Below, piece after piece: positions 1,471 through 13,843 of a stretch of 64,000 nt of DNA. The notes beneath the pieces were generated by a model. The model was not told the DNA's origin, did not search any database, and saw nothing but the letters and a program-made list of their open reading frames with translations. The stretch comes from an uncultured Candidatus Saccharibacteria bacterium (GTDB lineage Bacteria > Patescibacteriota > Minisyncoccia > UBA6257 > GWB1-50-10): NCBI GenBank assembly GCA_964357525.1, contig CAYHLH010000002.1, positions 5,287-69,286 on the forward strand, written 5' to 3'. The translations under genes and the position numbers were made by a program. Position 1 is the first letter of the stretch, and every line of letters begins with the position of its first letter.

Positions 1471-1510
1471 CCCTCTGTAAAGTTTTCGAAAGAGAAATTT
1501 GCTACAAATG

Positions 1511-1546
1511 AGGCGCTGCATTTAAATGCAGCGCCTGTGGTATAAT
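1511..1546. promoter_or_regulatory. 26-bp perfect palindrome AGGCGCTGCATTTAAATGCAGCGCCT abutting an extended -10 box (TGTGGTATAAT); candidate operator and promoter of the downstream TrpR-like gene
   Basis: Perfect dyad centred on TTTAAA, read directly from the sequence. TATAAT lies 13 nt upstream of the ATG at 1560. Confidence 0.5.
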
Positions 1547-1559
1547 GCAGTTATATCCT

Positions 1560-1934
1560 ATGGTGCGTGTAAATAAAACCCAGTTTCCGGAAAAACTTCG
1601 TGAAGAGTTGTGGGGAAAGTTTTCAAGCGAATTGAAAAACTCACCATCGTCGGAAGCACTTCTCAGAAAGTTGAGGATTGTCCTTACTCATGCTGAAATC
1701 ACCATGCTTGAGAAGCGCCTCGCGATTCCGATTCTCCTTGAACAGGGCAGGAGTTATCGGGAAATCGGCCGCATGATAGACGTGAGTTCCACGACAATCA
1801 ACTCCATCAAACATCATTTTGTGAAAAAGCCCGTGTCTCGCCATCGGTATACTTCATCATTGTCGAAGAAAAGTGCTTCACGGAGCCACCACTCATCAAA
1901 GGGCGTCGGGGCGGAGATTTGGAAAGCAAGGTAA
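1560..1934 (+). CDS. TrpR-like (YerC/YecD family) small HTH regulator
   Basis: MVRVNKTQFPEKLREELW...LEKRLAIPILLEQGRSYREIGRMIDVSSTTINSIKHHF, a Trp-repressor-like HTH. Start chosen at the second ATG (1560) by analogy with the paralog at 12997 (MVRVNRTQF). The track ORF starts at 1545, inside the -10 box. Confidence 0.6.
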   Translation: MVRVNKTQFPEKLREELWGKFSSELKNSPSSEALLRKLRIVLTHAEITMLEKRLAIPILLEQGRSYREIGRMIDVSSTTINSIKHHFVKKPVSRHRYTSSLSKKSASRSHHSSKGVGAEIWKAR

Positions 1935-1940
1935 AAAAAA

Positions 1941-1970
1941 CAAACCGCTGCATTTAAATGTAGCGGTTTG
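1941..1970. terminator. Near-perfect palindrome CAAACCGCTGCATTTAAATGTAGCGGTTTG flanked by A/T runs; terminator and second copy of the operator-like dyad
   Basis: Same GCTGCATTTAAATGCAGC core as at 1511, one mismatch, flanked by aaaaaaaa and ttttt. Confidence 0.45.
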
Positions 1971-2051
1971 TTTTTACCGAAAATGCCGTGTGGCAGCAAC
2001 GCCATTCGATGGAATTTCTTGAGATGGACTAGAGTTGTCGGTTGTTTCTTG

Positions 2052-2123
2052 AGGCCTGGGCGGGAATTGAACCCGCGCATAACGGTTTTGCAGACCGCTG
2101 CGTTACCACTTCGCCACCAGGCC
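2052..2123 (-). tRNA. tRNA-Cys (GCA)
   Basis: Reverse complement folds as a cloverleaf: acceptor GGCCTGG/CCAGGCC, anticodon loop CTGCAAA, T-arm CGGGTTCAATTCCCG. Confidence 0.8.
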
Positions 2124-3290: not shown

Positions 3291-3447
3291 ATTTCCGCCT
3301 TTTCCCCGAACATAAAAAGGCGTTTTTGACTAAAACGCCTTCCTGTGTTTTTATATGGAATTCATTGACTATAAGTTCATTTAGTGCTAAAAGAACATCA
3401 GTAATCAAATTTTATAAAAAGTAAATAATACAAGAAAAGGGGGCCCT

Positions 3448-4029
3448 ATGAGGTTTCTACGAAAAAGATGGAAAACGGTTCTTTTCATTCTCATCCTCGC
3501 AGGCTTCCTGGTTGTACTGAAAGACGCGCGGCAGGATTTTCTCTCTTATTTTCAGAGTTTCAATAGGTGGATTTTTCTCGAAAGTGTCGTTGTGGTAGTT
3601 ATCACTTTCGCGTTATTCAGCATTCTCTCCAAATGGAAATCGCCTGTGTTTGAACACAAGCTTCCGTGGGATTTTTCGACGGAATCCATGCTCGATTTTT
3701 CGGTGTGGGGATGGTTGCTTATAACGCTTTTTTTTCTGAACATTCCTTTTGTCGCAAAGATGGAAGAGCTCATATTCAGGGGAGATCTCTTCGGACGCGG
3801 AACCGCCGGTTGGGAAGAGGGAGTATGGAGAAGTATTTTATTTGGGTTTGTTCACTACGTATTTGGTGTACACGTGAAAACCGCAATACTCATAGTGTTT
3901 TTAGGGCTGTGGTTTACCTGGCATTATCTGCATGGCGGCGTGCCGGAATCCACGCTCTATCATGCAACTTTCAATTTCGCGGCATTGGCAATTTGGTTTT
4001 TCTCGTTTCTAGGTAAAGGTAATAAGTAA
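3448..4029 (+). CDS. CPBP family intramembrane metalloprotease (CAAX protease / Abi domain)
   Basis: Multi-TM protein with CPBP motifs EELIFRG, FGFVHY and HATFN. SD-like AAGGGGG upstream. Confidence 0.75.
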   Translation: MRFLRKRWKTVLFILILAGFLVVLKDARQDFLSYFQSFNRWIFLESVVVVVITFALFSILSKWKSPVFEHKLPWDFSTESMLDFSVWGWLLITLFFLNIPFVAKMEELIFRGDLFGRGTAGWEEGVWRSILFGFVHYVFGVHVKTAILIVFLGLWFTWHYLHGGVPESTLYHATFNFAALAIWFFSFLGKGNK

Positions 4030-12897: not shown

Positions 12898-12933
12898 CGC
12901 GGTCTGATTAATCAGACCGCGCCGTGGTATAAT
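12898..12933. promoter_or_regulatory. 24-bp perfect palindrome CGCGGTCTGATTAATCAGACCGCG followed by CCGTGGTATAAT (extended -10); operator-like site upstream of the frameshifted TrpR-like gene
   Basis: Perfect dyad centred on TTAA, the same centre as the E. coli trp operator CTAGTTAACTAG. Architecture identical to 1511-1546 but with a different half-site sequence. Confidence 0.5.
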
Positions 12934-12996: not shown

Positions 12997-13372
12997 ATGG
13001 TTCGCGTAAATAGGACTCAATTCCCAAGCGCGTTACGCCGAGAGGCATGGCAGAAGTTCTGGAAAATCGTGAGAAGTTCCCCGTCGCCGGAGGTGCTCGC
13101 GCGAGATCTCTCGGCATTTTTCTCCCCCTCGGAAATCGCCGTGCTTGAAAAGAGGCTTGCGATATTACTTCTCCTTGAAAAGGGCGCGGCCTATCGGGAA
13201 ATCGGACGCACTATATGATGTTACAAGGGGTACGGTGAGTTTTGTTAAGCATCACTTCGTGAAAAAACCGCGCGTACACCGGAAATATTCACCACTGCCA
13301 AAAAGGGAATCTTCATATATTCCGCCACCGGGGACACTACGATCACTAAAACGCCACTTTAAAGAAAAATAA
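12997..13372 (+). pseudogene. TrpR-like (YerC/YecD) regulator paralog interrupted by a +1 frameshift
   Basis: Frame A gives MVRVNRTQF...LEKRLAILLLLEKGAAYREIGRTI then a stop. Frame +1 continues YDVTRGTVSFVKHHFVKKP..., colinear with ...REIGRMIDVSSTTINSIKHHFVKKP of the 1560 gene. This is either a 1-nt indel or a sequencing error. Confidence 0.55.
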
Positions 13373-13437
13373 ATTTTTCTCTCTAACTCCATCTTTCCCT
13401 CCGTCTTTTCTTTTTCTTCTATGTGTCCCCTCCACCA

Positions 13438-13461
13438 CGCGGTCTGATTAATCAGACCGCG
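13438..13461. promoter_or_regulatory. Second copy of the palindrome CGCGGTCTGATTAATCAGACCGCG
   Basis: Identical 24-bp dyad, 65 nt downstream of the pseudogene. Confidence 0.5.
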
Positions 13462-13630
13462 TTGGATTTCGGTTTTAACCGGTTTATTTGATTATTCCTG
13501 CATCTTACATTTGATTGTTCCCGCATCTTACAAAAGAAAGAAAAGAAATGAAACTCCGCTGGCTTGCGCCCGTGGTTTCTTTTGGCTACAAGCTCAGTTT
13601 GACCCAGGTCTTCCAATAATATGCGACACA

Positions 13631-13660
13631 AGAGGTGGTCTGATTAATCAGACCACCTCT
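13631..13660. promoter_or_regulatory. 30-bp perfect palindrome AGAGGTGGTCTGATTAATCAGACCACCTCT (variant of the GGTCTGATTAATCAGACC dyad)
   Basis: Same core as at 12898 and 13438. Outer positions changed symmetrically (GCGG to GTGG on both arms). Confidence 0.5.
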
Positions 13661-13843
13661 TGATAACCCCTTTGTGCTGGAACGGGAAGACCGGGGTAAT
13701 GCATTTACCCGCCTCGACATTGCGTCGGGGTGGTTTTTTGACATATAAAAAACCCCCGCAATTTGACATTGCAGGGGTGACGTCACCTTCCTTACATTTA
13801 GTAGAAGTGTCCCCCAAAAGGGACTTTTGTCAGGAGGTGTAAA

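Follow-up and report, generated by a model that had tools for sequence, protein, structure and literature searches.

The closest described relatives of the system considered here are TrpR and HisR. TrpR of Escherichia coli represses its own gene, and the operator overlaps that gene's promoter. The protein YerC is now named HisR; it is a histidine repressor with palindromic operators of ~20 bp that read cacTTTAnnnnnnTAAAgtg, and about half of the hisR genes are predicted to be autoregulated (PMC9413887). The locus described here lies in a stretch of 64,000 nucleotides (hereafter the window) from contig CAYHLH010000002.1 of an uncultured Candidatus Saccharibacteria bacterium, where a gene at position 1560 encodes a small TrpR-family protein and is bracketed by two copies of one palindrome. 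Very probably this is a self-regulating gene cassette, judging from its sequence, because 27 of the 29 distinct loci of its family share this layout, each with a palindrome of its own. The mechanism that we consider likely is that of a TrpR-type autorepressor whose operator doubles as a terminator.

The family is set apart from both TrpR and HisR by its operator consensus, by the operator in the terminator, by multiplying paralogs with diversified operators, by the lack of a pathway context, and by a cassette-like pattern of gain and loss. Its named members all come from the Patescibacteria (candidate phyla radiation, CPR), bacteria with very small genomes and few recognisable regulators. A literature search found no publication on this regulator family, the only related report being the HisR/YerC study (PMC9413887), and no experimental study of any transcription factor from the Patescibacteria.

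Architecture of the cassette

A palindrome, a promoter, a gene and a second palindrome had been described at this locus in a first-pass annotation, and all of them are present (Table 1). The start codon is placed at 1560 because the N-terminus of the family, MVRVNK, matches there. Transcription would start near 1553, ~7 nt past the -10 hexamer, and the leader would be ~6-7 nt long. Measured from this start, the upstream dyad would be centred ~29.5 nt to the 5' side and would span ~-40 to -19. No -35 hexamer is recognisable at the promoter of the 1560 gene, nor in any homologous locus. The motif TGnTATAAT occurs seven times in the window (at 1538, 5261, 7681, 12925, 15344, 19501 and 26556) against 0.7 expected, and promoters with an extended -10 appear to be usual in the source genome.

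The downstream palindrome, CAAACCGCTGCATTTAAATGTAGCGGTTTG at 1941-1970, forms together with its flanks 23-nt arms at 1936-1975 that are 96% complementary. As plus-strand RNA, the hairpin has a folding energy of -27.5 kcal/mol (z-score -8.5) and is followed by U5; as minus-strand RNA, it has -22.8 kcal/mol (z-score -6.6) and is followed by U8. With a stable hairpin and a U-tract on both strands, the segment is therefore predicted to be a bidirectional intrinsic terminator, which agrees, at this locus, with the earlier suggestion that the second palindrome doubles as one. The convergent tRNA-Cys gene could share it.

The sequences involved are rare in the window. In the 64 kb there are two occurrences of the 18-bp core GCTGCATTTAAATGCAGC, one without and one with a single mismatch, against 0.03 expected. 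The palindromic pattern G[CG]TnnnnTTAAnnnnA[CG]C is found in five places (0.015 expected from shuffles), all of them at the 1560 gene or at a paralogous gene at 12997. Other terminators in the window lack the shared core, and their stems and loops differ.

Table 1. Features of the two loci, in window coordinates
Feature	Position	Strand	Details
Whole cassette, ~575 bp	1471-2045	+	Between the rbfA stop codon and tRNA-Cys
Upstream predicted operator AGGCGCTGCATTTAAATGCAGCGCCT	1511-1536	.	Perfect 26-bp palindrome; 22-bp family dyad 1513-1534; 18-bp core 1515-1532
Extended -10 promoter TGGTATAAT	1538-1546	+	GTGGTATAAT directly abuts the upstream palindrome
TrpR-family helix-turn-helix gene, 124 aa	1560-1934	+	ATG at 1560, stop 1932-1934
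Downstream copy of the dyad in a predicted bidirectional intrinsic terminator	1936-1975	.	Core 1947-1964, one G-T mismatch; A8 and T5 flanks
tRNA-Cys(GCA), convergent neighbour outside the cassette	2051-2123	-	Faces the terminator
Upstream predicted operator of the paralog CGCGGTCTGATTAATCAGACCGCG	12898-12921	.	Core 12901-12918; then CCGTGGTATAAT
Extended -10 promoter of the paralog TGGTATAAT	12925-12933	+	
Paralogous TrpR-like gene (P0026)	12997-13372	+	1-nt insertion near 13216; frame 1 = 12997-13218 (73 aa)
Paralog dyad, copy 2	13437-13462	.	65 nt past the end of the reading frame
Paralog dyad, copy 3	13629-13662	.	Within a perfect 34-bp palindrome; RNA fold -27.3 kcal/mol

A TrpR-family protein

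The 1560 protein is a member of the TrpR family, as had been proposed from its sequence. It matches Pfam PF01371 (Trp_repressor) with 35.3 bits against a cut-off of 27, and its AlphaFold monomer model has a pLDDT >90 over residues 10-88. The model contains five helices (11-27, 31-41, 44-61, 66-73 and 77-88), the last of which is the recognition helix. In a Foldseek search of the PDB, the best 29 matches were all TrpR or TrpR-like, with probabilities of 0.95-1.00 and target-normalised TM-scores of 0.55-0.69. A family profile run against the PDB also placed TrpR-like structures first (3kor at 3e-6, 3g1c at 2e-4, then 3frw). The narrower YerC/YecD label that the gene had been given is wrong, since the protein reaches 19.8 bits on the NCBIfam model TIGR02531, whose cut-off is 42.2; the NCBIfam TrpR model is likewise below threshold (20.6 against 67). 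HisR (TIGR02531) nevertheless resembles the protein as a small TrpR-family repressor and gives its best sequence matches among solved structures.

The likeness to E. coli TrpR extends over helices A-E, and the helix-turn-helix aligns residue for residue. In hhalign, with a TrpR sequence checked against 3wrp, the two proteins align with a probability of 93% and ~26% identity. The DNA-contacting residues of TrpR are Arg69, Ile79, Ala80, Thr81, Thr83 and Arg84 (PMC9413887), which pair here with R67, residue 77, residue 78, T79, residue 81 and residue 82, respectively. R67 and T79 are conserved, residues 77 and 78 are variable, residue 81 is Asn or Ser, and residue 82 is Ser. TrpR Arg54 is retained as R53, and TrpR Arg84, a tryptophan-contacting residue, is replaced by Ser82. 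The protein is presumed, by analogy, to act as a dimer.

Unlike TrpR, the protein has no helix F; in its place, residues 90-124 of the model form a basic, disordered C-terminal tail of ~35 residues. The tails of family proteins end in short conserved motifs, KGVGxxxWK in the window protein, L017, L012 and L044 (L numbers denote the loci examined), and G[RK]GRW[RS][WF]L in many other family members, in an alignment that also covers L002, L009, L011, L035 and L047. Such motifs might serve in oligomerisation or in the binding of a partner.

All named homologs come from Patescibacteria, among them Jorgensenbacteria, Brennerbacteria and Paceibacterota, and they were already annotated with PF01371. 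An exhaustive profile search returned 324 clusters at 50% identity with an E-value <= 1e-10. The family profile also matched P0138, a protein of 740 aa with ten tandem helix-turn-helix repeats (ILELLEKGLSQKEVGEQLGVS...) that nonetheless falls outside the family.

Layout across the family

Forty-seven loci encoding relatives, all from Patescibacteria, were examined and reduced to 29 distinct gene-dyad combinations, the two in the window included. In 27 of these, a dyad lies just 5' of a -10-like hexamer, mostly TGnTATAAT, and the same dyad is found again 2-190 nt past the stop codon. The 22-bp dyad is separated from the hexamer by 5-10 nt in most of the loci and by 15 nt in a single one. The 18-22 bp family dyad reads G[C/G]TnnnnTT·AAnnnnA[G/C]C, where the raised dot marks the centre, with an extended form G-Y-G-[C/G]-T-nnnn-TT·AA-nnnn-A-[G/C]-C-R-C. 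The four inner bases vary between loci (e.g. GCAT, CTGA, ACAG, CTGT, TCGA, TTAA, ATAA and CTAA) and are identical within any one locus, which holds two to six copies; the bases beyond the 18-bp core vary between copies. Downstream copies tend toward longer, terminator-type stems with A or T runs, and about half of those in homologous loci have such runs.

This locus-specific matching of upstream and downstream dyads favours the first-pass proposal that the palindromes would be the protein's own operators; the cognate operator of the 1560 protein would then be the 18-22 bp dyad GCGCTGCATTT·AAATGCAGCGC. The alternative use that the annotation had raised, as a generic terminator at unrelated loci, was also looked for: there is no such dyad in the window beyond the two loci, and the generic dyad pattern has no match in five control loci without a family gene. 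Over the 64-kb window and ~250 kb of loci, dyads occur only within ~3 kb of a family gene. When the stretches between the dyads and past them were compared by BLAST with all examined loci, nothing but the dyads themselves proved to be conserved.

Compared with the trp operator, the predicted operator is likewise a palindrome in an 18-bp frame, with G on the outside and TT·AA at the centre (GTACTAGTT·AACTAGTAC versus GCTGCATTT·AAATGCAGC). The conserved bases differ, being G[C/G]T in the family and GNACT in the TrpR operator, and the second operator in the terminator is systematic only here. Moreover, the family has no link to trp or aro genes and several paralogs per genome, whereas TrpR is single-copy. 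The differences from HisR are of the same kind: the family dyads G[C/G]TnnnnTTAAnnnnA[G/C]C are unlike HisR operators, and HisR is single-copy and controls his and transport operons, whereas the neighbours of family genes are unrelated housekeeping genes without a his context.

The two exceptions to the layout are L047 and L011. The latter has AT-rich repeats and is ambiguous. In L047 (890-990), a distant member lies directly 3' of thrS, and three related palindromes, e.g. GGTGTTATGCTATAGCATAACACC, lie upstream of thrS, which suggests a thrS-regulator operon under the control of its family member. L035 encodes a 40%-identical member with the operator TGTTCTACGT·ACGTAGAACA upstream and a copy with two mismatches 7 nt past the stop codon. 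Its sites, at 2909-2928 (TGTTCTACGTACGTAGAACA) and 3397-3416, are close to the E. coli trp operator consensus, TGTAcTnGTnnACnAgTACA (PMC9413887).

Several loci vary the arrangement further. In L043, dyads occur at 456-477, 541-563 and 1223-1246, and the dyad contains TGGTATAAT on both strands; the third dyad precedes an Asp/Asn-tRNA synthetase gene by 85 nt, and this gene may truly be a second target. A dyad-promoter unit upstream of the regulator gene is duplicated in tandem (78 bp) in L014 (1344-1451) and L034 (2832-2939), and is single in the related L016. L024 has a 47-bp direct repeat after its downstream dyad (3482-3575) and, at 3650-3671, a third type of dyad, GTGCTATAATTGATTATAGCAC, which has a T-run and is an orphan in that no regulator gene lies close to it. 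Finally, L037 (1762-2678; also L038) carries six copies of the dyad GGTTTAATTAATTAAACC in 3.4 kb, two of which bracket a frameshifted gene remnant of 62-65% GC within a region of ~43% GC; the remnant has no Pfam or PHROG match.

Covariation of protein and dyad

If each protein binds the dyads beside it, changes in one should be matched by changes in the other, and a co-divergence of this kind had been proposed for the two genes of the window. The family bears it out at residue 77, which opens the recognition helix and corresponds to TrpR Ile79. Where this residue is Arg (the window paralog, L012, L026, L033, L037, L039, L041, L042 and L043), the half-site at the start of the 18-bp core is GGT in 9/9 loci. 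Where the half-site is GCT, ACT (L046) or GTT (L047, L035), the residue is Pro, Ser, Gln or Leu in 17/17. The association has a Fisher p = 3e-7 with phylogeny ignored, and the Arg77 loci spread over at least three clades of a neighbour-joining tree of ~90 aligned residues. The window pair obeys the rule, with Ser77 and GCT at 1515 and with Arg and GGT at 12901. A looser trend links Asn86, in a KHNL motif, with inner nTAA.

Arginine reading guanine in the major groove is a classic pairing, and the candidate recognition rule that emerges pairs a G at operator position 2 with an Arg at helix position 1. In the paralog, the Arg that opens the recognition helix accompanies a C-to-G change at operator position 2; the two dyads of the window would presumably be orthogonal. 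The covariation is the strongest non-experimental evidence in support of the adjacent protein, rather than another factor, probably reading these dyads. The family offers ~25 natural protein-operator pairs in which the operators are already matched to the proteins, and it is thereby both a system for probing specificity change in a TrpR-type helix-turn-helix and a potential source of orthogonal repressor-operator pairs.

The same observations bear on two other explanations of the palindromes. One is that they are ordinary terminators or structural repeats unrelated to the protein, their likeness being due to local duplication or gene conversion. Both copies do form strong RNA hairpins, the downstream one with U-tracts on both strands, and the upstream copy could stop read-through from rbfA. 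This explanation is very improbable all the same: the remaining window terminators are built on different stems and loops, the upstream copy has no U-tract and sits 5' of a -10 hexamer, upstream and downstream dyads are paired in nearly all distinct loci with sequences that differ between them, and a residue position that contacts DNA varies together with operator position 2.

The other is that the protein binds the RNA hairpin of the transcribed downstream palindrome and in that way controls termination or the stability of the mRNA. Transcription does include the downstream copy, whose hairpin, given above, is a strong one, but the upstream copy lies 5' of the inferred start, outside the gene's own mRNA. 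In addition, the TrpR fold is a binder of double-stranded DNA, and the Arg-G covariation fits readout in the major groove. We would give RNA binding scarcely any weight.

The second copy at 12997

The first-pass annotation had described the gene at 12997 as a paralog with the same architecture and a different dyad. The dyads are as described: the core GGTCTGATTAATCAGACC has three exact occurrences (12901, 13441 and 13637) against 0.01 expected. The gene, on the other hand, is not intact. Frame 1 ends at 13218 after GRTI, owing to a 1-nt insertion with the context ACTATA-T-GATGTT (13210-13220). The remainder, in the +1 frame at 13217-13372, begins DVTRGTVSFVKHHF... and holds the recognition helix DVTRGTVSFVKHH. 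The fragment scores 26.5 bits on PF01371, just under the cut-off of 27.

Programmed frameshifting at AUA UGA U was rejected, since none of the known slippery features is seen there; more probably the gene is a recent pseudogene or the insertion an assembly error. An intact probable ortholog, P0003, is encoded in L041 in a similar context. The paralog is a diverged family member with a dyad of its own, GGTCTGATT·AATCAGACC.

Between its second and third dyads, at 13487-13532, there are two copies of a 23-bp tandem direct repeat, TTTGATT(A/G)TTCC(T/C)GCATCTTACA, followed at 13548-13619 by a 23-codon ORF (MKLRWLAPVVSFGYKLSLTQVFQ). The repeat and the ORF have no Rfam match and are not conserved in other loci; Rfam applied to the paralog intergenic region and four loci returned no known RNA family and one tRNA only. 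For this possible small ORF, and for one past the dyads of L024 (from 3716), homology searches yielded nothing convincing. The motif CCYGTGGTTTYYTYTYGG, at 13569-13586 and in L024, was also rejected, being at chance-level frequency in the window and absent from other loci.

Proposed mode of regulation

The mechanism proposed here is conventional; it is the self-bracketing design that is unusual. A dimer bound to the upstream dyad would exclude RNA polymerase and repress its own gene, because the occupied site would cover an extended -10 promoter that has no -35 element. It is this operator position that points to repression rather than activation. The downstream copy would serve both as a terminator stem and as a second binding site, where it might act as a repression-loop partner, a roadblock, or an insulator against convergent transcription. 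Binding there would matter, because the downstream copy is conserved across the family. The whole operator-promoter-gene-operator/terminator unit would be self-contained, and the family lets one ask why a regulator keeps a second operator within its own terminator.

Repeated operators, spaced by a few hundred bp about a single promoter, are also seen with LacI (O1/O2/O3), GalR (OE/OI) and DeoR, and such repetition may allow looping or a roadblock. Here the distance from the upstream to the downstream operator is 384-568 bp, with a median of 472. Unlike in those systems, the second site systematically falls within the terminator of the gene itself; the family has no known tetramerisation domain, and no convincing helical phasing is seen. 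Another likeness is to the controller (C) proteins, small helix-turn-helix proteins that are autoregulated from palindromic boxes at their own promoter. C proteins have an Xre-type fold and lie beside restriction-modification genes, whereas neither that fold nor such neighbours are found here.

An opposite possibility is that the protein is a positive autoregulator, whose bound dimer would replace the -35 element by recruiting or remodelling RNA polymerase in a class II or MerR-type manner. The lack of a recognisable -35 hexamer in every locus would fit, as would the tight register of 5-10 nt between dyad and hexamer, which activator sites also have, and the weak Pfam matches of the protein to sigma-70 region 4 (E = 0.0014). 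But the promoters have the consensus extended -10 TGnTATAAT, and extended -10 promoters work without a -35 element. The dyad centre at ~-29.5 matches neither class II sites (-41.5) nor the spacer site of MerR, and the register over all loci, 5-15 nt, is looser than one would expect of a face-specific activator. Given also that the characterised relatives TrpR and HisR are repressors, positive autoregulation is unlikely.

Several observations nonetheless weigh against autorepression as set out above. A centre at -29.5 would, strictly, still be compatible with activation. The helical phasing of the operator distances is not significant, and looping therefore gains no support from it. No target besides the regulator's own gene was found in the window, which is odd given up to four copies per ~1-Mb genome. 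The three dyads of the paralog are still perfect although its gene is broken. The neighbour-joining tree is weakly resolved, so that the number of independent Arg/G events is uncertain. Finally, with Ser82 at the Arg84 position, the TrpR ligand pocket is incompletely conserved.

Gain and loss of the cassette

The compact module that had been proposed at 1560 can also be seen by its absence. Four relatives found through RbfA (L048, 74% identical; L049/L050, 73%; L051, 70%; L052, 85%) share the gene neighbourhood and have no regulator gene: infB and rbfA are followed by tRNA-Cys within 0-20 nt. In L048, the tRNA gene is on the minus strand, 8 nt past the rbfA stop, and both the flank cgttcgttatcttatcatc and the tRNA orientation are as in the window; in L049/L050, a GH18 gene follows, as it does in the window. 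These empty sites indicate that the ~575 bp were inserted in the lineage of the window. No duplication of the target site can be seen there.

Elsewhere, all other homologs are placed among unrelated housekeeping genes. One Jorgensenbacteria assembly has four copies, two of them with a common dyad, and decayed copies include the frameshifted gene in the window, a truncated one in L003, and the degenerate upstream dyad of L005.

Such turnover raises the possibility that the palindromes mark the ends of a small mobile cassette or serve it as recombination sites, comparable to REP/RAYT or integron attC, in which the protein would be a DNA-binder for mobilisation and regulation would be secondary. 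In favour of this are the presence or absence of the unit between related genomes, the different housekeeping context of every homolog, the multiple and partly decayed copies, the two L037 dyads around a GC-rich remnant, and the tandem duplication in L014. The 124-aa protein, however, consists of a TrpR fold and a disordered tail without a catalytic domain; no transposase or recombinase is consistently near the homologs, and no target-site duplication is seen. The dyads are confined to the vicinity of family genes rather than dispersed. A scan found no relatives in viral contigs, PADLOC gave no match to its defence-system models, and PHROGs gave chance-level matches only. Moreover, a fixed register with the -10 hexamer fits regulation and not mobility. 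A mobilisation role is accordingly quite improbable.

The REP/RAYT systems do offer a parallel, in that the gene is flanked by its own palindromes and paralogs each have a different one. RAYTs belong to the HUH/Y1 transposases, and REPs are scattered sequences that number tens to hundreds. By comparison, the fold here is that of TrpR, without a catalytic domain, and the dyads keep to the gene neighbourhood.

A broader view, which goes beyond autorepression and which we hold to be doubtful, is that these are semi-autonomous regulator cassettes, each with a strong promoter, a repressor that silences it and insulating operator-terminators at either end, and that they form a selfish or near-neutral family turning over in the reduced genomes of Patescibacteria. 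A unit of this kind could land between any two genes, be duplicated, change its recognition helix along with its operator so that cross-talk is avoided, and decay; many copies would have no host target. If it is true that the cassettes have no other targets, they would be regulator genes acting as self-contained elements of gain and loss. The dyads might also mark sites of foreign DNA capture, as L037 hints.

Two further observations concern the neighbourhood in relatives. In L051, a gene for a large serine recombinase (238-1812; Resolvase, Recombinase and Zn_ribbon_recom domains) lies directly upstream of infB. The tRNA-Cys gene beside rbfA is on the plus strand in L049 (3479-3552), L051 (4021-4093) and L052 (881-950), and on the minus strand in L048 (3419-3490) and in the window; this difference in orientation reflects a local inversion of small size that is unconnected with the insertion of the cassette.

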